The position numbers and the translations under genes are program-made. From IMG/VR virus record IMGVR_UViG_2724679238_000012, positions 1 through 27,285 of that record: a stretch of 27,285 nt of DNA. One strand, 5' to 3'. This document shows, piece by piece, positions 9,051 through 27,285 of this stretch. The notes beneath the pieces were generated by a model, which saw only the letters and a program-made list of their open reading frames with translations, made no database searches and had not been told where the DNA came from. The stretch comes from a virus. Taxonomy: Duplodnaviria > Heunggongvirae > Uroviricota > Caudoviricetes. How positions within the stretch are numbered: position 1 is the stretch's first letter; each line of letters opens with the position of its first letter.

Positions 9051-12000
9051 CTATATTTTTCCGCCTACGCCTTTAAACTTCTCAATAAACGAGACGATTT
9101 TCTGGAAAACTGCCTGTTTTTTCGTTTTATATTGCGGATTTAACGGACTAAGTTTTGGTAATGTTTCGTTTAATTCTGTGCCATTTTCGGTGGCATATTC
9201 GCGTTTTAAAGACGTGCGAATATAGCGTTTTGCTGCCTCTTCATTGAGATTTTCTTCTTTTATCAATGCTTCTGCTTCACGTTGCTGTTCGCGTTGAGCA
9301 AACGTAAAGAATGCGTCAATGATGCTGGCTTTGTCCGGTAAATCATCCAGGTTCGTTTGCTGAATAAAATCGACCACCAGGCCCTCTTTAGCACGGTTCC
9401 CTAGGCTTGAACGAATTAAGCGTTTGACCTCTTCGATCATTTCGCCCTTGCCTTTATTTTGTCTGTTGTGTTCGAAAATCAGTCCAAGGATATAATCCAG
9501 GTTTATTTCCTGAGACTTCAGCAAATCGACCTCAAAAACTACGTCATCCCAGTCAGTGGTTGATTTCTCTTTTTTCTCAGCTTCTTTCTCACGGCGCTGC
9601 CAGTCGCGAATATCGTTATAGGCAGAACGATAATCCTGAATCTTGCGATCAGCAGGGAGACGAATTGTTTGCAATTCAGCGAACTTTTCATCATCCACAT
9701 AATGTTCTGCTTTGAATTTTTCTACCGCAACAGGATCGCTAAGATCGATTTGTTGCAGGGCTTTTAGCGTGGCAAATTCATCATAGTTTTGCAGGATGTT
9801 CTCGGCACGCAGGTATTCGCCAAACAGTTTAACGAAGTCTTTCTTCTCTTTTTCACTTTCAATACTGGTAGGGTCAGGGAACCGTTGTTCCAGTTCTGAA
9901 ACTACTGTCATGAAGCCGCGTTTAGCTTCACCAGTAGCAGCATCAGTAAAGCCTTCCATATACTCTGTATAACTCTTTTCTAACACCACATTTTTGGTGT
10001 TTTTGTCACCAAACAGCGTTATGGCATCAATAGTTGAGCGTTCCAGATCCCGAAAAGTGACGATATTACCGAAGGTTTTAGTTGCATCATAAATACGGTT
10101 GGTGCGGGAAAATGCCTGCATCAGGCCGTGAAAACGCAAGTTTTTATCGACGAATAGCGTGTTCAATGTTGGAGCGTCGAAGCCGGTTAAAAACATCCCA
10201 ACGACAATTAACAGATCGATATCCTGATTTTTAACCCGTTGGGCTAAATCACGATAGTAGTTCTGAAAACCGTTACTGTCGGTGCTAAAGTTAGTTTTAA
10301 AATGGCTGTTATATTCACGAATTGCAGCGTCCAGAAACTCTTTAGCACTGCTGTCCATTGCGCTGGTATCAAAAGTTTCATCGGAAATTTCACCAATGGC
10401 ATTTTGTTCTTCATTGGCGGCAAAGGAGAAGATTGTCGCAATACGCAGCGGTTTATAGGTAGCCGATTTATTAGCGGCTTCTTCTTGTAACCGTTTAAAC
10501 GTCGCATAATAGGCTTTCGCGGCATCCACGCTGCTCACTGCCAACATAGCATTAAAACCTTTTGAGCCAGGGAAGGTACGATGGGTTTTCTGGCGGAAAT
10601 TATTCAGAATATATTGCGTGATTTCCTGAATACGCATGGGATGAAGAAACGCCTGCTGATTTTCAGCCGCACTCAGTTTTTTCTCGTCAGTTTCTGTCTC
10701 TAAAGACTTAAACTGTGGCCGCACATCGTTGTAGTCCACCTTGAATTTGAGCACTTTTTCGTCACGAATCGCATCGGTAATTACATACGAATGCAATTCA
10801 CGACCAAATACGCTGGCGGTTGTTTCTGAGCCTAAGGCGTTTTCCGGGAAAATAGGGGTGCCGGTAAAACCAAACTGATAATAGCGTTTGAATTTCTTCT
10901 TCAGGTTTTTCTGAGCTTCTCCAAACTGGCTGCGGTGGCATTCATCAAATATAAACACCACTTGCTGATTATATACAGGCAGGTCGCTTTCTGCTTTCAT
11001 CAGGTTATTGAGTTTCTGAATAGTAGTGACGATAATTTTGTTATCGTCCTTATCCAGATTTCGTTTAAGGCCTGCGGTATTTTCCGAGCCGTTGACGCTG
11101 TCTGGCGAAAAACGCTGATATTCCTTCATGGTCTGGTAATCGAGGTCTTTCCTGTCGACCACAAAGAAAACTTTATCAATAAAGTCCAGTTCTGTTGCCA
11201 GACGCGCGGCTTTAAAGCTGGTCAGGGTTTTACCGGAACCCGTGGTGTGCCAGATATACCCACCGCTTTCCGGTTTTGACCAGTTCTTCGCTGTAAAGGA
11301 GCTCTTAATTTTCCACAGAATGCGCTCGGTGGCGGCAATCTGGTACGGTCGCATCACCAGTAGCGTCTGACTACTGTCAAAAACGCTGTAGTTCACCAGA
11401 ACATTCAGCAGAGTATGTTTCTGGAAAAAGGTAGCGGTAAAGTCTTTGAGGTCTTTAATCAGCGTGTTGTCTGATTTCGCCCAATTCATGGTGAAGTCAA
11501 AACTGTTTTTATCGCGCTTTGTCGTGTTGGCAAAATAACGGGTATCGGTGCCGTTAGAAATGACAAACAGTTGCAGATACTTAAACAGGGAATTTTCGCT
11601 GTTAAAACTCTCTTTACTGTAACGATGTATCTGGTTGAAAGCCTCACGAATCGCCACCCCGCGTTTTTTTAGTTCGATTTGCACCAGCGGTAAACCATTA
11701 ACCAGGATCGTGACGTCATAACGGTTAGCATGAGAACCCGTCTGTTCAAACTGCTGGATAATCTGCACCTTATTGCGCATGAGATTCTTTTTATCTATCA
11801 AATAGATGTTCTCAAGTCGCTCGTCATCAAAAATAAAGTCGCAAATATAGTCGATATGGATTTTACGGGTCTTATCCAGAATGCCATCGCTCGGGTTGTC
11901 CAGATACTGCTCCGTGAAACGCCGCCACTCGCTGTCATTAAACACCACACCATTGAGGCTCTGAAGCTGTTGTCGAACATTGGCCAGCATCGCCGACTGA

Positions 12001-12212
12001 GATTTTACGGATATAAATTCATAGCCCTGATTTCGCAGGTCCTGAATCAGTTCCTGTTCCAGGTCCGATTCGCTCTGGTAGCTGTCGCCTGTTGGCTCAG
12101 CTTTGATGTACTTATCAAGGACGATAAAGTTATTGGATTCAGCAATGGTGTGTGTTTGATGAGTCATAGCGCATCCTTTGTGCCGTCTGGCAAGGGCCGG
12201 AAGTTCCGGCAC
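9051..12212 (-). CDS. hsdR: Type I restriction enzyme R subunit (HsdR), helicase/endonuclease
   Basis: 1053-aa ORF with Walker A HTTGSGKT and DEAD/DECH box FIFDECH; size and position after hsdM-hsdS. Confidence 0.9.
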
Positions 12213-12273
12213 TTAAAAAATAGTCTATATACAGACCGGATGTTAAGGTGGCCCGGTCGGTAGCAATGGTCAA

Positions 12274-13509
12274 TTAATTACTGACAGTATCAGGTTTCGG
12301 GAAACTGAACAGTAAATCACGATAGTACTCGTATTGTTTCTGGCGCAACTCGATTTCACGCGGGAGCCCCTCGGTGATGGAGTTGGTCAGAGTATCGAAT
12401 TTGTCGAGTATTTCGACAATGCGAGCTTGCCAGGTGAGTGGCGGTACAGGGATTGGGTATTTTATTATATCCTCTTTACTGCCACGCGGCATTTTTGCTC
12501 CTTTAGCATGCTGCATGTTGTATTCAAAGAATTTGTCATCTGCCAAAATATGATATAGATATCTGGTATTTATTGAGCTATCTATACAACGAATAACCAA
12601 TACATCACCATTTGTTCCACCGATACAATCTGCTTGCCAAATTTTTTTCAAATATGGGCGGATATTCCCAATCAGTATATCGTTAGGTATAAACTCTGTT
12701 AATTTACCTGATGTCGGCACATGATTAGATAATGATTTTCCTGCTCTGTTTTGCAGCAGATTATCTACGCCAACATAATTCCTTTTATCAAGTAGTTCGA
12801 AACTAATTTTTGTTTTCGAGTATTGAGCTGCTTCTCCCAAAGTTTTCCACTCAACCTCGCCCTCTTTAAAACTCAACAACTGCTCGCGATAGTAGTTGTA
12901 CTGTTTTTTACGCATGTTAAGCTCTGCTGTCAGCTCTGCTGTCAGGGCGCTGAATGTGTCCAGAATCCGAACGATTTCAGACTGAATGGCAAGGGATTTT
13001 TCCGGATTTTCCGGACAGGGGATAGGGATAATAATTTTCGCCATATCCGATGCAGACACATCAATTACTTTAGTTCCCTTGGAGTATTTCCTTTTCTCAT
13101 TTGCAAAAGAATCCGTTTGCGTGAAATAGGCAAAGTATTTCCCAATAATAGTGCTATTTGGCTTGAAAATAGTTGCATGGCCACCAGTAACAGCTTGCTC
13201 TTTACCTAGATAAACAAGCGCCTTACCAACATCAGTAAAATTTTCGCTTGTGTTAGTAATAACAACATCACCAGAGTTAACCTTTTTAAGCTTCTTCGCC
13301 GTTTCATGGGAAACAAATGACTTTGTTGTTTCAGTAGATAATCCGTAAAAAGTATATATCTGACCATAGTGTATGGCAGGAACCCCTGATTCGGTAAAAT
13401 CAGACTTAGGCAATCCATTTCCACGAACTAATTCACCTAGTTTCCCCAATGGCAACCACTCAACCTCAACCCCATCCGGCAATTTTTCCAGATAACTCAA
13501 CTCGCTCAT
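12274..13509 (-). CDS. hsdS: Type I restriction-modification specificity subunit (HsdS), two target-recognition domains
   Basis: 411-aa ORF; conserved central and C-terminal repeats ([24 protein letters not shown] and [20 protein letters not shown]); ATGA overlap with hsdM. Confidence 0.85.
12921..12944. repeat. Two tandem copies of a 12-bp repeat (gctctgctgtca) encoding TAEL-TAEL in the HsdS central conserved region
   Basis: Seen directly in sequence and in the HsdS translation; the EcoR124I/II family is known to differ by copy number of this repeat. Confidence 0.8.
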
Positions 13510-15068
13510 TTCGGCACCTCGCAGCCTTCAATTTCAGCCACAATCGCATCAATATCTTTACGCAACTGGTCGATTTTGCTGACCGTGGTTTTCAGTTCTG
13601 CATTCAACTCAGCGATATCGATAATTTCGCGAGTATCTTTCGCTTCCACATAGCTGCTCACCGACAGGTTATAGTCATTAGCGACAACAGCCTCAAACGT
13701 GACAGATTTTGCCAGATGAGCAACATCTTCCTTGCTGGAAAATACCTGCATAATTTTTTCGATATGGGCATCGGTCAGGATGTTGTTGTTAGTCTCTTTT
13801 TTGAACAGTTCGCTGGCGTCAATAAACTGAACGTTGGTATCCGTTTTATGTTTAGACAGCACCAGAATATTTACGGCAATGGTGGTGCCAAAGAACAGGT
13901 TCGGTGCCAGTGAAATCACGGTTTCGACATAGTTATTGTCGACCAGATACTGACGGATTTTCTGCTCTGCGCCGCCACGGTAAAAAATACCCGGGAAGCA
14001 GACAATCGCAGCACGACCTTTGGCCGAAAGATAGTTCAGCGCATGTAATACAAACGCAAAGTCAGCTTTGGATTTGGGGGCCAGAACGCCAGCTGGGGCA
14101 AAACGCTCATCGTTAATCAGCGTCGGGTCATCGCTGCCAATCCATTTCACCGAATACGGCGGGTTAGAGACGATGGCATCAAACGGTTTTTCATCTCTGA
14201 AGTGCGGTTCAGTCAGCGTATTGCCCAGCTTGATATCAAACTTGTCGTAGTTGATGTTGTGCAAAAACATGTTCATACGTGCCAGGTTATAGGTCGTATG
14301 GTTGATTTCCTGTCCGAAAAAGCCTTCTTCAATGATATGGTTATCAAACTGCTTTTTAGCCTGCAACAACAGCGAACCGGAACCCGCGGCCGGGTCGTAG
14401 ATTTTGTTAACGTGGGTCTGCCCGTGCATAGCCAGTTGTGCAATCAGCTTGGAGACGTGCTGCGGTGTAAAGAACTCACCGCCTGACTTACCGGCATTTG
14501 CCGCATAGTTAGAAATCAGGAACTCATAGGCATCACCGAACAGGTCAATCTGATGTTCATTGAAGTCACCAAGGTTTAACCCTTCGACCCCTTTCAGAAC
14601 CGCAGCCAGGCGGGCATTTTTATCCTTAACGGTGTTACCCAGGCGGTTACTGGTTGTATCAAAATCAGCAAACAAACCTTTGATGTCAGCTTCTGAAGGG
14701 TAACCGTAAGCAGAGCTTTCGATAGCAACGAAGATACTATTTAAATCTGCATTCAGTCTGTCATTGGTATTTGCTTTCGCCGCTACGTTGCAGAAAAGCT
14801 GACTGGGGTAGATGAAGTAGCCTTTGGTTCTGATGGCATCGTCTTTAATGTCATCAGTAATAATGCCGTCATCAAGTGCCGCATAACAGATGCTGTCATC
14901 ACCATTTTCCATATAACTGGAAAAATTTTCGCTGATAAAACGGTAGAAAAGTGCGCCCAGAACGTATTGCTTAAAATCCCATCCATCGACCGAACCCCTG
15001 ACATCGTTAGCAATTTGCCAGATTTGACGATGAAGCTCTGCACGTTGTTGAATACTTGTCATTTTCAT
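13506..15068 (-). CDS. hsdM: Type I RM N6-adenine DNA methyltransferase subunit (HsdM)
   Basis: 520-aa ORF; motif [11 protein letters not shown] and motif IV NPPY (NPPYSVKW). Confidence 0.9.
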
Positions 15069-17659: not shown

Positions 17660-18960
17660 CGCGGTTTTCCACCTGGCTTTTTTTGTTTAAAATAGTGGGA
17701 TGAAACGACTACAAGCATTTAAATTCCAGTTAAGACCAGGTGGTCAACAGGAGCGTCAAATGAGGCGCTTTGCCGGAGCTTGTCGTTTCGTTTTCAATCG
17801 TGCCCTGGCACTTCAGAATGAGAATCATGAAGCCGGGAACAAATATATTCATTATGCAAAGATGACTTCCTGGCTGGTTGAATGGAAAAATGCTACTGAA
17901 ACGCAATGGCTTAAAGATTCGCCATCACAGCCATTGCAACAGTCACTGAAAGACCTTGAGCGGGCTTACAAAAACTTCTTCCAGAATCGGGCTGCTTTTC
18001 CCCGATTCAAAAAGCGGGGACAGAATGATGCATTCCGCTACCCGCAGGGCGTTAAGCTCGATCAGGAAAACAGCCGTATTTTTCTGCCGAAACTTGGCTG
18101 GATGCGCTACCGGAACAGCCGTCAAGTCACGGGCGTTGTGAAAAATGTCACGGTCAGCCAGTCCTGCGGTAAGTGGTACATCAGTATTCAGACAGAAAGT
18201 GAAGTATCAACTCCGGTTCACCCTTCAGCATCAATGGTCGGGCTGGATGCTGGCGTGGCTAAACTCGCCACGCTGTCAGATGGCACAGTCTTTGAGCCTG
18301 TAAACAGTTTTCAGAAAAACCAGAAGACGCTGGCGAGACTTCAGCGGCAGTTAAGCCGCAAGGTCAAATTCAGCAATAACTGGCAGAAGCAGAAACGCAA
18401 AATACAGCGACTGCATTTCCGTATCGCAAATATCCGCAGGGACTACCTTCACAAAGTCACAACGACCGTCAGCAAAAACCACGCAATGATTGTCATTGAG
18501 GATTTGAAGGTTAAAAACATGGCAAAGTCAGCAGCGGGTACGGTCAGCCAGCCGGGGCGCAATGTCCGGACAAAATCAGGTTTAAACCGTTCGATACTGG
18601 ATCAGGGCTGGTATGAAATGCGCCGCCAGCTTGAGTACAAGCAGCTCTGGCGTGGCGGTCAGGTACTGGCTGTTCCGCCAGCGTACACAAGCCAGCGTTG
18701 CGCGTGCTGTGGTCATACAGCGAAAGAAAATCGCCTGTCACAAAGTAAATTCAGATGCCAGGTATGTGGATATACAGCGAACGCCGATGTAAATGGCGCT
18801 CGTAACATTTTAGCGGCGGGGCACGCCGTACTTGCCTGTAGAGGGATGGTGCAGTCAGGCCGCCCGTTGAAGCAGGAACCAGACGCTGAGCAATCAGCCG
18901 TCACCCGCTAATGGGAATCCCCCTCCTGAGTCACGAAGTGCGACGGTGGGGGAGGATGTC
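17660..18960 (+). mobile_element. Probable IS200/IS605-family element remnant carrying tnpB only (no tnpA), with imperfect hairpin just 3' of tnpB
   Basis: No HuH/Y1 transposase ORF adjacent; imperfect inverted repeat atccccctcct...ggtgggggaggat at 18917-18957 immediately after the tnpB stop. Boundaries are approximate. Confidence 0.4.
17700..18911 (+). CDS. tnpB: IS200/IS605-family TnpB (OrfB) RNA-guided nuclease-like protein
   Basis: 403-aa ORF; Ruv[17 protein letters not shown], Ruv[14 protein letters not shown], zinc finger CACCGH...CQVCGY, Ruv[14 protein letters not shown]; resembles E. coli IS609-type InsQ. Confidence 0.85.
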
Positions 18961-18976: not shown

Positions 18977-20170
18977 GTGACCTGGGACGATCACAAGAAG
19001 AATTTTGCTCGCCTGGCGCGAGATGGTGGTTACACCATCGCACAATATGCCGCCGAGTTTAATCTCAACCCAAACACCGCACGTCGTTATCTCCGTGCCT
19101 TCAAAGAAGACACCAGGACTGCGGACAGCCGCAAGCCAAATAAGCCAGTCAGGAAGCCACTAAAAAGCATGATCATTGATCACTCTAATGATCAACATGC
19201 AGGTGATCATATTGCGGCTGAAATAGCGGAAAAACAAAGAGTTAATGCCGTTGTCAGTGCCGCAGTCGAGAATGCGAAGCGCCAAAATAAGCGCATAAAT
19301 GATCGTTCAGATGATCATGACGTGATCACCCGCGCCCACCGGACCTTACGTGATCGCCTGGAACGCGACACCCTGGATGATGATGGTGAACGCTTTGAAT
19401 TCGAAGCTGGCGATTACCTGATAGATAACGTTGAAGCGCGGAAGGCCGCGCGCGCTATGTTGCGTCGGTCCGGGGCCGATGTTCTGGAAACCACTCTTCT
19501 TGAAAAGTCTCTTTCTCATCTCCTTATGCTGGAGAACGCCAGGGATACGTGTATTCGCCTGGTGCAGGAAATGCGCGATCAGCAAAAAGACGATGATGAA
19601 GGTACTCCGCCTGAATACCGTATCGCGAGCATGCTAAACAGCTGTTCCGCGCAGATAAGCAGCCTGATCAACACCATTTACAGCATCCGGAATAACTATC
19701 GAAAAGAAAGCCGGGAGGCGGAAAAGCACGCTTTGTCTATGGGGCAAGCTGGCATTGTTAAGCTGGCATACGAACGAAAGCGTGAAAATAACTGGTCAGT
19801 GCTGGAAGCAGCTGAATTCATCGAGGCGCATGGCGGGAAAGTGCCGCCCCTGATGCTGGAGCAAATCAAAGCCGATCTGCGTGCTCCTAAGACCAATACC
19901 GATGATGAGGAAAACCAAACAGCATCTGGCGCTCCATCACTTGAAGATCTGGATAAAATCGCGCGAGAACGGGCCGCCAGCCGCCGCGCTGATGCCGCAT
20001 TGTGGATTGAGCAACGTAGAGAAGAAATTGCCGATATCGTCGATACAGGTGGTTATGGTGATGTCGATGCGGAAGGCATATCAAACGAAGCATGGCTTGA
20101 ACAGGATCTGGACGAAGACGAGGAGGAAGACGAAGAAGTTACCCGCAAACTGTACGGGGATGATGATTAA
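18977..20170 (+). CDS. pacA: PacA, terminase small subunit (pac-recognition component)
   Basis: 397-aa product with GTG start; contains the pac site; size and sequence consistent with P1 PacA. Confidence 0.9.
19168..19330. other. pac packaging site: 4 + 3 clustered TGATCA-type hexamers (7 GATC Dam sites) flanking the cleavage region
   Basis: GATC at 19171, 19178, 19190, 19205 and at 19301, 19313, 19324, all in TGATCA/TGATCG context, inside pacA. Confidence 0.85.
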
Positions 20171-21654
20171 TGGCCAGAAGTTGCGTAACGGACCCACGTT
20201 GGCGCGAGCTGGTGGCGCTATATCGTTATGACTGGATTGCGGCCGCTGATGTGTTGTTTGGGAAGACACCAACCTGGCAGCAGGATGAGATCATTGAGTC
20301 CACGCAGCAGGACGGCAGTTGGACAAGTGTGACCTCCGGCCATGGTACTGGTAAGTCGGATATGACGAGTATCATTGCAATACTCTTCATCATGTTTTTC
20401 CCCGGCGCTCGCGTTATTCTGGTCGCTAACAAAAGACAGCAAGTCCTTGATGGTATTTTCAAATACATAAAGAGCAATTGGGCTACTGCTGTTAGCAGAT
20501 TCCCGTGGTTGTCGAAGTATTTCATTCTTACAGAAACGTCTTTTTTTGAGGTGACTGGCAAGGGTGTTTGGACAATATTGATAAAGTCCTGTCGCCCCGG
20601 AAATGAGGAGGCGTTGGCTGGTGAACACGCCGATCATCTCTTGTATATCATCGACGAAGCGTCGGGTGTGAGTGATAAAGCATTCAGTGTGATAACAGGT
20701 GCGCTGACCGGTAAGGATAACCGTATTCTGCTTCTTTCCCAGCCTACGCGACCTTCAGGCTATTTCTACGATTCACACCACAGACTAGCTATTCGCCCGG
20801 GAAATCCTGATGGATTGTTTACTGCGATAATACTGAATAGTGAAGAATCTCCGCTTGTAGATGCAAAATTTATACGAGCAAAACTTGCGGAGTATGGCGG
20901 TCGTGATAACCCCATGTACATGATCAAAGTACGTGGTGAATTTCCCAAATCTCAAGATGGCTTTCTTCTTGGTCGTGATGAGGTTGAGCGGGCGACGCGG
21001 CGAAAGGTCAAGATTGCCAAAGGATGGGGCTGGGTTGCATGTGTTGACGTTGCTGGTGGCACAGGACGAGATAAGTCCGTTATTAATATCATGATGGTGT
21101 CCGGCCAGCGAAATAAACGCCGTGTAATCAACTATCGTATGCTGGAATACACAGACGTTACAGAAACGCAGTTAGCCGCCAAGATTTTCGCAGAATGTAA
21201 CCCAGAACGGTTCCCGAACATAACCATAGCTATTGATGGCGATGGCTTAGGGAAATCGACGGCTGATCTGATGTACGAACGCTATGGTATTACCGTCCAG
21301 CGTATCCGCTGGGGGAAAAAGATGCACAGCCGTGAAGATAAAAGCCTTTATTTCGATATGCGCGCTTTCGCGAATATTCAGGCGGCAGAAGCTGTAAAAT
21401 CAGGGCGTATGCGGCTTGATAAGGGGGCTGCGACTATAGAGGAAGCATCAAAGATACCGGTAGGGATAAATTCCGCAGGTCAATGGAAGGTGATGTCAAA
21501 GGAAGATATGAAGAAAAAACTCAACCTGCACTCACCGGACCATTGGGATACATATTGTTTCGCTATGTTGGCGAACTATGTTCCCCAAGATGAAGTGCTT
21601 AGCGTCGAAGACGAAGCGCAGGTTGATGAAGCTCTGGCATGGCTTAATGAGTGA
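20170..21654 (+). CDS. pacB: PacB, terminase large subunit
   Basis: 494-aa ORF whose ATG overlaps the pacA stop (TAATG); size matches P1 PacB. Confidence 0.9.
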
Positions 21655-21657
21655 AAA

Positions 21658-21674
21658 CTTGCTCTAATAAATTG
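21658..21674 (+). promoter_or_regulatory. C1 operator (CTTGCTCTAATAAATTG, 15/17) just after pacB
   Basis: Seen 4 nt after the pacB stop, followed by TTGACT. Confidence 0.6.
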
Positions 21675-21806
21675 TGTTTTTTGACTACCGATGTTACATT
21701 GAACCTGACCTCTTGCGCCTTGAGGCATTTTCGGTTTATGCTTATCAGGCACCTCATTAAAACGGGTGCCGGGATTGAGACCCCGGATAATGTCAAAGGC
21801 GACACA

Positions 21807-21829
21807 GACGCCGAAAGCGTCTTTTTTTT
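21807..21829 (+). terminator. Rho-independent terminator (gacgc-cgaaa-gcgtc + T8)
   Basis: 5-bp GC stem, 5-nt loop, then tttttttt on the plus strand. Confidence 0.5.
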
Positions 21830-21869
21830 GTGTCATGCCATCGCACAGCCATACGTAGCGTTTAGCTCC

Positions 21870-21995
21870 GAGATCAATGGTAGTGCTGGCTGGGCTGCCG
21901 AAAGGCAGGCCGGTTCCCTTTGACGCCGGTAGTCTCAACCCAGTCAGTGCTACCGCCATTGAGATTGAGACCTCACGCGGTAGCTCCTTAACTTA
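21870..21995 (+). ncRNA. Candidate c4-like antisense RNA / structured regulatory leader upstream of the icd-like ORF
   Basis: GNRA-loop hairpin ctgcc-gaaa-ggcag; ctaccg can pair with upstream cggtag or downstream gcggtag; loop gtctcaacc is complementary to attgagac, which occurs in loops at about 21772 and 21965. Boundaries and strand are a guess. Confidence 0.3.
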
Positions 21996-22014
21996 GTCAA
22001 AGGAGGCTGCCATT

Positions 22015-22236
22015 ATGGCTACTATCCCTACCCCAACTCATCCTGAATTTATCTGGCGCTTTTACTCCTGCCAGAAACGTCACTATCACTTCGTTATCGC
22101 AACAACAGAAGATGAGGCTCGCTCTCAGCTTCCGGATGCTCCCTGCATTTTCTCTGCCCGTTTTTCCACTGATTTGTGCAATTCTCTCAGTTACTGGTGT
22201 CTCCCTGTTAACGCTTCTGCTCAGGAGGGACTATGA
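22015..22236 (+). CDS. 73-aa Icd-like small protein, translationally coupled to ant
   Basis: Strong RBS AAAGGAGG; stop overlaps ant ATG (ATGA); same length and arrangement as P1 icd, but sequence identity not verifiable from memory. Confidence 0.45.
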   Translation: MATIPTPTHPEFIWRFYSCQKRHYHFVIATTEDEARSQLPDAPCIFSARFSTDLCNSLSYWCLPVNASAQEGL

Positions 22237-23348
22237 GAACGTCATTAGTCACCCGTGAAGAGATGATCGAGGCAATTGAACAGCATACCGCCTGTATCAG
22301 TACCAGGGATATACCGGGCGTTATTGCCAACTATTTCATGATCACCAAACAACTTTACCGGAGAAAGGACAAGAACGCGGTTCACCGTATCCTGTTGTCT
22401 GATATCCGCGAATACCTGCTCGAACAGGGGCATCTGAATTACGCAACCATCGCAGCCGAAGCACGCAAGGAGGCACACAGAATGAAAGCAACTAACGTTA
22501 AATCAGAAAAAATTCATGCAACTTCAGTTCAGAAATCGGAGCTGGTGGTTGCTCAAAATCAGCCGGATGAAATTCCCGTTCTGGAGTGGCAGGGGGTGCG
22601 TGTAGTGACAACCGAGACTCTTGCTAAAGGGTATGGGACAGAAACAATCCGTATTCGCCAGAATCATCATGAGAACAAAGTGCGCTTTGTTGAAGGGAAG
22701 CACTTTTTCAAGGTTATTGGCGATGAGCTGAAAAATTTGCGGGTAGCTTTAAACTACTCACAAAATCCAGTCTCACCCAAAGCCCGCTCACTCACTCTCT
22801 GGACAGAACGCGGCGCTGCCCGTCACGCTAAAATGCTCGAAACCGATCAGGCATGGGCATTCTTTGAAAAACTGGAAGACAGCTACTTCCGACAAAAAGA
22901 ACAGCAACCGATCGCAATCCCCCAGACGCTTCCAGAAGCCCTGCGTCTGGCTGCCGAACTGGCTGAACAAAAGCAACTTCTGGAACAGAAAGCCCACCAG
23001 CTAAATCAGCAGCTGGTGGCCGCCGCTCCTAAAGTCGATTTTGCCGACCGGGTATCAGTAGCTAAAGGGATCCTGATTGGGAATTTTGCAAAGGTTGTTG
23101 GACTTAAGCAAAACGCGCTGTTTGCCTGGTTACGGGAGAACGGCATCCTGATAGCGTCCGGTGGACGTAAAAATGTGCCGTTCCAGCAGTACATCAATGC
23201 GGGGTATTTCACGGTGAAAGAAGTGGTGCTGGATGATGAAGATGGCTACCAGATACGGTTGACGCCTCAATTAACGGGTAAAGGCCAGCAGTGGTTGACG
23301 CGTAAACTGCTCGATGCTGGCTTGTTAAAACCGGTGGCGGCTGAATAA
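22233..23348 (+). CDS. ant: Phage antirepressor (Ant-like), ORF6N/Bro-N-type N-terminal region plus KilAC-type C-terminal domain
   Basis: 371-aa ORF; VLEWQGVRVVTTETLAKGYG...NKVRFVEGKHFFKV resembles ORF6N; C-terminal IASGGRKNVPFQQYINAGYFTVKEVVLDDEDGYQIRLTPQLTGKGQQWL typical of KilAC antirepressor domain. Confidence 0.75.
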   Translation: MRTSLVTREEMIEAIEQHTACISTRDIPGVIANYFMITKQLYRRKDKNAVHRILLSDIREYLLEQGHLNYATIAAEARKEAHRMKATNVKSEKIHATSVQKSELVVAQNQPDEIPVLEWQGVRVVTTETLAKGYGTETIRIRQNHHENKVRFVEGKHFFKVIGDELKNLRVALNYSQNPVSPKARSLTLWTERGAARHAKMLETDQAWAFFEKLEDSYFRQKEQQPIAIPQTLPEALRLAAELAEQKQLLEQKAHQLNQQLVAAAPKVDFADRVSVAKGILIGNFAKVVGLKQNALFAWLRENGILIASGGRKNVPFQQYINAGYFTVKEVVLDDEDGYQIRLTPQLTGKGQQWLTRKLLDAGLLKPVAAE

Positions 23349-23355
23349 TGGAAGA

Positions 23356-23377
23356 ATGCCCGGTTGATGCCGGGCAT
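23356..23377. terminator. Bidirectional terminator between convergent ant and c1 (atgcccgg-ttgatg-ccgggcat)
   Basis: 8-bp perfect stem lying between the ant stop (23346-23348) and the c1 stop (23381-23383). Confidence 0.55.
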
Positions 23378-23380
23378 AAT

Positions 23381-24232
23381 TTATTGCGCGCTTTCGGGGT
23401 TGTCGTTTACTGGCTGCCCCTTCTTGGTTTTACGGCTGCGCGTAACTGATGCGGCTGACTTAACCTTTTTCTCTTCGCGAGTGATGGCAATTTGTTTTTT
23501 TACATTTTCAATATCTGCCAGGCGATATATTTTTGCTTGCGGCCAGCGGTCGCAGATGATCGGTTCTATGGAGTCATAAAGGCTAAATTTTGCTTTTTCG
23601 AATTCACCGTTGATGATAATTCCATCACGGAGAGTTTCATCGCAGATAAACACGCCACACAGTGGCACATGGTAACTAACTGATTTACCATCATTGTAGT
23701 TAGGGCTACTGGAAATGTAGTGGACGCGCAGCATTGTTTCGCTAAAGCCGTGTACGCGCATACGGAATTTTTCATCCTCCGGGTACTGCTTCATTAGCTC
23801 TTTTGTTGCTTCCAGGTTCTCTATGTATTTCGCACTGTGCTCATTGATCCCCGCGCTTTTTTGGATGCGAATGTCCTTATCAATCAGATGAATAATGCGG
23901 CCAGCGGTCATGTTGACGCTGTTCACAGCTTCTGTCTGATAAGTTGTAACCTTACGCACACCGCGAAGGATGTTAGGCACTGGATATAAAATAGTCTTTG
24001 GGATATTGAGGTCTGGGTACTGTTCCAGTTCCCGCGCCATTAAAGTCCATTTATCAATTTCAGCCTGAATGCTGTCAGTTTCTTTGAACGGTAGAACGAC
24101 AACCGGGCGTACAGGACGACCGTCGCTGGCTGTATCAACGTGTTGGGCGCGTGCAACAGCTTTTTTTAGAAAGAGATCCCTGAAGCTGACGAACTCCTGG
24201 TACAGTTGTTCGCCGTAGACATAATTTATCAT
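23381..24232 (-). CDS. c1: C1 repressor (master repressor of lysogeny)
   Basis: 283-aa product MINYVYGEQLYQEFVSFRDLFLKKAVARAQHVD... recognised as P1 C1. Confidence 0.95.
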   Translation of the reverse strand: MINYVYGEQLYQEFVSFRDLFLKKAVARAQHVDTASDGRPVRPVVVLPFKETDSIQAEIDKWTLMARELEQYPDLNIPKTILYPVPNILRGVRKVTTYQTEAVNSVNMTAGRIIHLIDKDIRIQKSAGINEHSAKYIENLEATKELMKQYPEDEKFRMRVHGFSETMLRVHYISSSPNYNDGKSVSYHVPLCGVFICDETLRDGIIINGEFEKAKFSLYDSIEPIICDRWPQAKIYRLADIENVKKQIAITREEKKVKSAASVTRSRKTKKGQPVNDNPESAQ

Positions 24233-24790: not shown

Positions 24791-24807
24791 TAATTTATTA
24801 GAGCAAT
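24791..24807 (-). promoter_or_regulatory. C1 operator (reverse complement ATTGCTCTAATAAATTA, 16/17), Op99 cluster
   Basis: Seen in sequence upstream of coi. Confidence 0.7.
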
Positions 24808-24873: not shown

Positions 24874-24890
24874 ATTGCTCTAATAATTCT
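24874..24890 (+). promoter_or_regulatory. C1 operator (ATTGCTCTAATAATTCT), Op99 cluster, 44 bp from loxP
   Basis: Seen in sequence; followed by the same TTGATTTTTA element as the operator at 8786. Confidence 0.6.
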
Positions 24891-27022: not shown

Positions 27023-27285
27023 TCATTCAGCCGCCACCGGTTTTAACAAGCCAGCTTCGAGCAGTTTACGCGTCAACCACTGTTGGCCTTTCCCAGTTAG
27101 CTGGGGCGTCAGCCGTATCTGGTAGCCATCTTCATCATCCAGCACCACTTCTTTCACTGTGAAATATCCGGCGTTTATGTACTGCTGGAACGGCACATTT
27201 TTACGTCCACCGGACGCAATCAGGGGGTTCGCGCCCATTTCCTCTAAAAGTCTCACCTTGCTTAGGTAATTAATTGAATTTATTT
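27023..27285 (-). CDS. Second antirepressor-like gene, KilAC C-terminal domain only in window (5' part lies beyond the right edge)
   Basis: C-terminal 60 aa nearly identical to the C-terminus of the 22233..23348 Ant protein (one E/D difference); the reading frame stays open upstream of the track's start through to the window end. Confidence 0.6.
   Translation of the reverse strand, partial: INSINYLSKVRLLEEMGANPLIASGGRKNVPFQQYINAGYFTVKEVVLDDEDGYQIRLTPQLTGKGQQWLTRKLLEAGLLKPVAAE

Follow-up and report, generated by a model that had tools for sequence, protein, structure and literature searches.

What is an antirepressor gene doing beside the master repressor gene of a P1-like phage-plasmid, some 44 kb from where P1 itself keeps one? 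The question came from a 27,285-nucleotide stretch of viral DNA (Caudoviricetes; IMG/VR record IMGVR_UViG_2724679238_000012, positions 1 to 27,285), which we call the window and which is a segment of a P1-like phage-plasmid with pacA (18977-20170), pacB (20170-21654), c1, coi and cre all within it. The pacB gene ends at 21654 and c1, the master repressor gene (23381-24232, minus strand; NCBIfam phage_rep_C1 equivalog, 611.6 bits) and the presumed source of the antirepressor's target, ends at 23381, leaving 1,726 nt (21655-23380) between the two. In P1 (NC_005856) the corresponding stop codons, at 93206 and 93231, are only 24 nt apart, and the c4-icd-ant immunity region, immI, lies far away at 48.1-49.7 kb on a map that has pacB-c1 at 93.2 kb. 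An initial annotation of the window had described the P1 map in just these terms (c1 directly after pacB, immI tens of kilobases off) and the reference sequence bears it out: there is no such segment at the P1 junction, and all 1,726 nt are surplus relative to P1.

Our answer is that the segment is probably a complete, intact and additional immI-type cassette, one that would work, by homology with immI of P1 and P7 and with the isrK locus of the Salmonella prophage Gifsy-1, as a second, orthogonal module of immunity and anti-immunity. Every element listed in the initial annotation proved to be where it had been placed, and together they make up a full immI-type module: a C1 operator, a C4 RNA and the target sites that match it, icd, and an ant gene that has an Ant2-like start nested inside it. 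The anatomy, family matches, complementarity, covariation and distribution set out below were established in this analysis.

Two RNAs and a two-part recognition code

What had been noted as a structured RNA region resolves into two RNAs, each above its Rfam gathering score and both, like all the pairing sites below, on the plus strand. The first (21749..21827) is an IsrK-type small RNA or leader (isrK, RF01394; 60.2 bits, gathering score 50) that matches the model over its full length, positions 1-77, and ends in an intrinsic terminator found by a terminator scan (stem 21806-21822 plus T8). The second (21873..21960) is a C4-type antisense RNA (RF01695; 75.4 bits, gathering score 45), which folds with a minimum free energy of -46.5 kcal/mol into the architecture of its family. 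C4 carries two recognition sequences, b' (CCTTTGAC, 21917-21924) in the loop of its hairpin 2 and a' (GTCTCAA, 21932-21938) in a single-stranded bulge. The C4 target region in the icd-ant mRNA (21965..22006) consists of a2 (TTGAGAC, 21965-21971) and b2 (GTCAAAGG, 21996-22003), the latter overlapping the Shine-Dalgarno (SD) sequence of icd, AAGGAGG (22000-22006). The complementarity of a' and b' to a2 and b2 is exact, over 7 and 8 nt, and it is just as exact to another copy of the pair inside the IsrK-type RNA, where a1 (TTGAGAC, 21775-21781) sits in a hairpin loop and b1 is GTCAAAGG (21792-21799).

The code (TTGAGAC / GTCAAAGG) is unlike those of P1, of P7 and of the other cassettes of pNJS001-1, the closest relative of the window. 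Predicted duplexes at the cognate a and b sites come to about -8.8 and -12.7 kcal/mol, and those of the window C4 with the P1, P7 and pNJS001-1 codes to at most -3.2 and -5.1 kcal/mol. In phage D6 the a site is identical (-8.8 kcal/mol) and the b site alone is weaker (-6.5 kcal/mol).

Two open reading frames (ORFs) that overlap the RNAs were considered and rejected as genes. One encodes 127 aa on the minus strand (21576-21959); variation among 28 distinct leaders of the pacB-c1 locus is concentrated at the RNA pairing sites. The other, of 39 aa (21877-21996, plus strand), is called an 'ash family protein' by PGAP and matches Pfam Phage_ASH at 28 bits. It lies entirely within the C4 RNA, and its annotation is most likely an artefact of an RNA gene.

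Matched alleles across natural leaders

Do natural cassettes keep the three copies of the code in register? A pattern scan of IMG/VR, with the C4 stems held fixed and the loops left free, returned 70 loci which, with the window and three reference loci, give 74 IsrK-type cassettes. In this set b' and a' have two alleles each, found in all four combinations, and a1, b1, a2 and b2 are all exact matches in 72 of the 74. All four combinations occur at the pacB-c1 locus itself, again as matched sets, and most of the variation among the 28 distinct leaders from that locus falls within the six short pairing sites, with scattered polymorphisms elsewhere.

In an alignment of 30 distinct leaders the a'-a2 and b'-b2 pairings hold in 100% of cells, with 4 doubly compensated positions; sliding the partners by 1-3 columns as a control gave no doubly compensated positions in the same leaders. 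Pairing of a1 and b1 with a' and b' holds in 99.6% of cells, both exceptions being in a1. The order of the sites matters here. They are interleaved (a1 b1 b' a' a2 b2), which means that no single crossover can exchange one of the two codes without breaking the match of the other, and the matched sets therefore speak for selection on pairing.

The P1-type C4 RNAs (IMG/VR loci L080-L198) are more diverse still, with 12 combinations drawn from at least 7 b' and 2 a' alleles, and a1, b1, a2 and b2 are fully matched in every one of the 116 complete P1-type cassettes. The 12 P1-type and 4 IsrK-type codes bring the number in circulation to at least 16.

The operator, the promoters and the genes they would serve

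The segment begins, 4 nt past the pacB stop, with a C1-operator-like 17-mer, CTTGCTCTAATAAATTG (21658..21674, plus strand), as the initial annotation had proposed. It matches the consensus ATTGCTCTAATAAATTT at 15 of 17 positions and aligns with Oc4/Op51 of P1; its core, TGCTCTAATAAATT, is identical in 25 of the 28 leaders, and each of the other three has one substitution. Sites with two mismatches or fewer are rare by chance (0.02 expected in the window, five observed). The four others are at 3021-3037 (-), 8786-8802 (+), 24791-24807 (-) and 24874-24890 (+), the two near 24.8 kb lying upstream of coi and c1, where the Oc1 operators sit in P1.

Two promoters can be proposed behind the operator, as in P1. 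The upstream one, TTGTGT-N17-TACATT (21672..21700, plus strand), is a putative C1-repressible promoter whose -35 element overlaps the 3' end of the operator; it would be the analogue of P2c4/P51a, and in placement and quality of match it equals the annotated P2c4 of P1 (TTGTAT-N17-TATCTT), the match being weak and read by eye. The downstream one, TTGCGC-N18-TATGCT (21713..21742, plus strand), is a putative constitutive promoter analogous to P1c4/P51b of P1 and to PisrK. Transcription from it is predicted to begin near 21749, where the isrK model has its position 1, both its hexamers are invariant in the 28 leaders, and D6 has TTGCGC-N18-TATATT at the equivalent place. Both promoters remain putative, placed solely by positional analogy with annotated promoters of P1 and D6.

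Behind the RNAs come the two genes, the 73-aa and 371-aa reading frames of the initial annotation. The first (22015..22236, plus strand) is icd-like: its product scores 49.9 bits against NCBIfam NF033153, the Icd-like cell division inhibitor family (cut-off 25), and is 77% identical to P1 Icd, with which it shares its length. The second, ant (22233..23348, plus strand), is Ant1-like. It overlaps the icd stop in an ATGA (22233-22236) and has an SD sequence of its own, AGGAGG (22222-22227). Pfam confirms the ORF6N and KilAC domains that the initial annotation had named, the first in the middle of the protein (residues 116-201, 72.8 bits) and the second at its C terminus (ANT/KilAC, PF03374, residues 259-360, 111 bits), which is the make-up of a KilAC-domain antirepressor with a DNA-binding-type module ahead of it. 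Within ant there is a predicted in-frame Ant2-like reading frame of 288 aa (22482..23348, plus strand), with an ATG at 22482 behind a strong SD sequence, AAGGAGG (22467-22473). It starts 83 codons into ant, which is the offset of ant2 within ant1 in P1 (48937 vs 48688).

Overall, the window Ant is 55% identical to P1 Ant1, an average that hides a great deal. Identity is 63% over residues 1-83, falls to 16-24% over residues 84-201, which hold the ORF6N domain (Pfam finds none in P1 Ant1), and rises to 91% over residues 259-371, the KilAC end. The Ant of another pNJS001-1 cassette is closer, at 93% identity.

Judged by tblastn, only one of the 33 homologous loci at the pacB-c1 site, on a contig that ends after codon 34, lacks a full-length icd, and ant is a single intact frame in 19 of the 21 complete homologous loci, where Ant proteins have diverged to 85-99% identity. 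Several natural alleles have GTG in place of ATG as the icd start (the column of window position 22015).

Likeness to known systems

The obvious comparison is with immI of P1 and P7, and part for part the resemblance is close: operator (Oc4/Op51), P51a/b, a1 b1, c4, a2 b2, icd and ant1/ant2 come in the same order, a C1 operator overlaps the upstream promoter, the C4 RNAs belong to one Rfam family and b2 lies over the icd ribosome-binding site. The 73-aa Icd, the ATGA coupling of icd to ant, the nested Ant2 start at codon 84 and the KilAC C terminus (91% identical) are likewise common to both. The differences are of place, leader and code. P1 immI lies between sim and kilA-repL, whereas the window cassette occupies the pacB-c1 spacer, and we therefore regard it as an extra immI-type cassette, not immI itself. 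Its a1 and b1 sequences are present, but their carrier is an IsrK-type RNA (RF01394) instead of the P1-type c4-a1b1 motif (RF03163); the leaders of P1, of P7 and of both P1-type cassettes of pNJS001-1 match RF03163, whereas those of the window and D6 match RF01394. The a/b code is another one, and the central domain of Ant is ORF6N, in a protein only 55% identical overall.

The icd-ant region of D6 shares the IsrK-type RNA, the C4 RNA and the 5' end of icd, at 94% identity to window positions 21748-22077, and it has the same a site. It differs in its b site, which is 2 nt off in all three copies (GCAAAAGG vs GTCAAAGG), in having no C1 operator upstream, and in its downstream gene, a Rha-type regulator without similarity to the window Ant. 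At the DNA level, alignment of the window with P1 immI is limited to the operator, icd with the 5' part of ant (70%) and the 3' part of ant (80%). In sum, the cassette is a mosaic of a P1-type operator, a D6-type RNA leader (94% identical) and a distinct Ant. The cargo at the pacB-c1 locus is mosaic in its turn. Behind the same IsrK-type leader, the IMG/VR loci L050 and L044 have either a P1-type Ant (55% identity to that of the window) or a 68%-identical one.

Further afield is the isrK-orf45(STnc1160)-anrP locus of Gifsy-1, which has an IsrK-family small RNA with terminator read-through, a processed stable RNA downstream and a small ORF coupled by AUGA to an antirepressor-like gene (PMC4825925). 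Experiments on Gifsy-1 have shown the read-through of the IsrK terminator, the AUGA coupling and the activation of translation by IsrK in trans (PMC4825925). It is a lambdoid prophage locus without a C1 operator, however, and its small ORF is of 45 aa and is not icd. Satellite phage P4 offers another parallel: its antisense RNA is also processed, belongs to the same Rfam clan (CL00128) and pairs with target sites that are repeated on both sides of it, upstream and downstream. CI RNA of P4 differs in working by premature transcription termination of replication genes, and there is neither an icd-ant cargo nor a C1 operator. The P4 system (seqA, CI RNA and seqC) is discussed alongside Gifsy-1 in PMC4825925.

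A common insert, seldom described

The initial annotation took the layout to be unusual. It is not. The insert is present at a coverage of at least 80% in 323 PLSDB plasmids, and an empty P1-type junction is found in 314. Escherichia phage RCS47 (NC_042128) and the P1-like plasmids pTZ20_1P and pNJS001-1 have it at the same site and with the same parts, at nucleotide identities from 93.6% (RCS47, where it is annotated 'ant') to 99.9% (pNJS001-1, over the module), and without essential difference; the junction is empty in P1, P7, phiW39 and SJ46. The insert was mentioned in passing by Venturini et al. 2019 (PMC6906374), who describe an insertion of an antirepressor gene, with two short hypothetical ORFs, in the gap from pacB to c1. 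Our literature search found no functional study of the pacB-c1 cassette, nor did we find a description of its RNAs, its operator or its specificity alleles in the published annotations and papers searched; the annotations amount to ant, an Icd-like product and the spurious 'ash family' ORF. The cassette is, then, an ordinary member of the C4/IsrK-gated antirepressor cassettes, and one that had been sequenced, and in part annotated, before. What is new relative to the papers searched is the RNA anatomy, the code alleles and the place of the cassette in multi-cassette arrays, and that only.

No target-site duplication or flanking repeats were found around the insert, and 'ATGCCGG' is all that the 24-nt P1 spacer has in common with the hairpin region at the ant-c1 end of the segment; the event may have been an insertion or the deletion of an ancestral copy. 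Partial copies also occur. Plasmid pF829-1 (locus L079) has a deletion derivative in which the final ~400 nt of ant follow directly on the end of pacB (equivalent to window positions 21644 and 22948), with the operator, the RNAs, icd and the 5' part of ant removed, and phage phi456 retains the 3' end of ant alone beside c1. Truncated or frameshifted copies are found in L024, L071, pF829-1 and phi456.

How the switch would work

The homology with immI of P1 and P7 drawn here has its basis in the annotated P1 sequence, in a published summary (PMC8546580) and in the work of Citron, Heinrich and Schuster. In P1, immI involves RNase P processing and Rho-dependent polarity. From these sources, and from Gifsy-1, we infer the transcription, processing, repression and Ant target of the window cassette. 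In a lysogen, C1 bound at 21658-21674 would keep the upstream promoter off. The downstream, constitutive promoter would stay on, with most of its transcripts ending at the IsrK-type terminator and those that read through being processed to C4 RNA. The a' and b' sequences of C4 would then pair with a2 and b2 and mask the ribosome-binding site of icd, and because ant is translationally coupled to icd through the ATGA, no Ant would be made. Since the C4 targets are duplicated exactly within the IsrK-type RNA, that RNA is a likely competitor for C4: its a1 and b1 could bind the same loops, in cis or in trans, and tune the switch.

Should transcription outrun C4, either through loss of C1 or through entry into a cell without a matching C4, Icd and the Ant1-like and Ant2-like proteins would be made and the repressor antagonised. 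The cassette would protect the lysogen against incoming elements of the same code, and it would provide the element, when that is the incoming one, with one more Ant that a resident might fail to silence. Because its a/b code differs from those of P1, P7 and the other pNJS001-1 cassettes, it would furnish the element with a further, orthogonal specificity of immunity and anti-immunity in encounters with other P1-like elements.

Several points weigh against this scheme. A strict sigma-70 scan of the leader reported neither of the proposed promoters, which are weak matches made by eye. A strong IsrK-type terminator stands between the promoter and C4. The role of a1/b1 is the least secure step, a1 being mismatched in 2 of the 30 leaders; a1 also matches neither a' nor a2 in the IMG/VR loci L050 and L056. 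With two alleles per site in the IsrK-type set, and related sequences, the independent covariation events are few. Finally, the central region of Ant, with its ORF6N domain and 16-24% identity, differs enough from P1 Ant1 that the target may be something other than C1.

Other explanations

This last point leads to the most serious of the alternatives. The RNA switch might work as described, and the ORF6N-KilAC protein act elsewhere, on the repressors of co-resident prophages, on DNA or, in the manner of P1 KilA, on the host; the purpose of the cassette would in that case be cross-talk or host killing and not P1 immunity. Residues 84-258 of Ant are indeed unrelated to P1 Ant1 (16-44% identity), its ORF6N domain being one that Pfam does not find there, and its KilAC domain is also common to P1 KilA, at 60% identity over 164 aa. 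The Rha-type protein of D6, behind a leader 94% identical to that of the window, implies that the cargo of such switches is interchangeable, and AnrP of Gifsy-1 acts on the expression of the antiterminator AntQ (PMC4825925). However, the N-terminal 83 aa (63%), the C-terminal 113 aa (91%) and the nested Ant1/Ant2 starts are all conserved with P1, the cassette has acquired a C1 operator, and in our survey it is confined to elements that carry c1. We consider another target unlikely, and inactivation of C1 is what we would infer, with due regard to an Ant only 55% identical to P1 Ant1 and of a different central domain.

The initial annotation offered a second alternative: that the layout, with ant and c1 convergent and adjacent, has a function of its own and would couple the immI-type and immC circuits. 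On this view transcription of ant would run into c1 and lower C1 by antisense or collision, a coupling in cis. In P1 the two are already linked in trans, by a C1 operator at the c4 promoter and by the action of Ant on C1. The window stop codons are a mere 32 nt apart, and that spacer holds a GC-rich hairpin, ATGCCCGG-N6-CCGGGCAT (23356..23377), which the initial annotation had called a bidirectional terminator shared by the two genes. The hairpin is there, with a 9-bp stem and folding energies of -18.5 kcal/mol (plus strand) and -14.6 kcal/mol (minus strand), but the scan scores a terminator on the plus strand only, the minus-strand tail being poor in T. Even on the plus strand the T tract is modest (AATTTATT), which makes some read-through into c1 plausible, and the hairpin and junction are invariant in all 25 loci that carry the module. 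That very invariance means there is no covariation to support the idea, nor did any other positive evidence emerge. A GC-rich hairpin of this strength between the genes tells against transcription across them, cassettes of the same type lie at other map positions (that of canonical immI, and another site again in pNJS001-1), the insert is missing from about half of P1-like plasmids, and the deletion remnants suggest a permissive intergenic site. Coupling through adjacency or convergence is accordingly unsupported, and we think it quite improbable.

That the segment now has no function, and is a copy of immI which arose by duplication or recombination and is kept only through linkage to c1 and pacB, would suit its absence from P1, P7 and the 314 plasmids and its truncated or frameshifted copies (L024, L071, pF829-1 and phi456), but is very improbable given that icd and ant are intact in most copies despite the divergence of Ant, that the RNA sites still match three ways where alleles have switched, and that the operator and promoter hexamers are conserved.

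Several cassettes in one element

We return, then, to an additional immI-type cassette in the pacB-c1 spacer, and to the company it keeps. In pNJS001-1, which encodes an identical Ant, there are three cassettes (coordinates L006 10782-12298 (-), L006 39412-41002 (+) and L002 6001-7722). The canonical immI cassette, next to kilA, has its a code as in P7 and a new b code. A second, downstream of lyz, has its a code as in P1, its b code as in P7 and a palindromic double C1 operator, ATTGCTCTAATAAATTTGATTTATTAGAGCAAT. The third, at pacB-c1, has TTGAGAC as a and GTCAAAGG as b. Nor is pNJS001-1 alone: at least 18 of the 38 IMG/VR contigs of at least 75 kb have two to four cassettes, one 97-kb contig has four with four different codes, and among the multi-cassette elements examined none has the same code in two cassettes. 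The pacB-c1 cassette is one polymorphic slot of this multi-cassette system.

Our tentative suggestion, for which the case is a little short of even, is that C4-gated icd-ant cassettes, mutually orthogonal, occur in natural P1-like phage-plasmids as arrays of two to four spread over several loci, each cassette with a two-part code (a, b) written three times, as a1b1, a'b' and a2b2. If so, these elements would be engaged in a combinatorial arms race of RNA 'barcodes', in which a resident is immune only to incoming elements whose codes it carries in full, one unmatched incoming cassette is enough to break C1 immunity, and the IsrK-type a1b1 RNA is a sponge for C4.

Why should this matter? P1 immunity is known almost entirely from the laboratory phages P1 and P7, each with one immI and an empty pacB-c1 junction. 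The wild population looks different: about half of P1-like plasmids have a second cassette, some have three or four, and polymorphism of the RNA recognition code goes far beyond the classic P1/P7 pair. Resistance and virulence genes are spread by P1-like phage-plasmids, and the coexistence, exclusion and mutual induction of these elements bear on that spread; the a/b codes provide a testable predictor of compatibility between elements that needs nothing beyond their sequences.

Neighbouring genes in the window

Three further features of the window deserve mention. At its right edge is the 3' end of a second ant-type gene (27023-27285, minus strand, running off the end), whose last 66 aa are 98% identical to the C terminus of the 371-aa Ant; the c1-coi-cre region is therefore flanked by two inward-pointing ant genes. 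A complete type I restriction-modification system occupies 9051-15068 on the minus strand (hsdR 9051-12212, hsdS 12274-13509, hsdM 13506-15068); comparison with pNJS001-1 (records 1-107560) gave no match to it. Lastly, a 403-aa protein of the TnpB / IS605-OrfB family is encoded at 17700-18911 (plus strand), between lpa and pacA, which are neighbours in P1.

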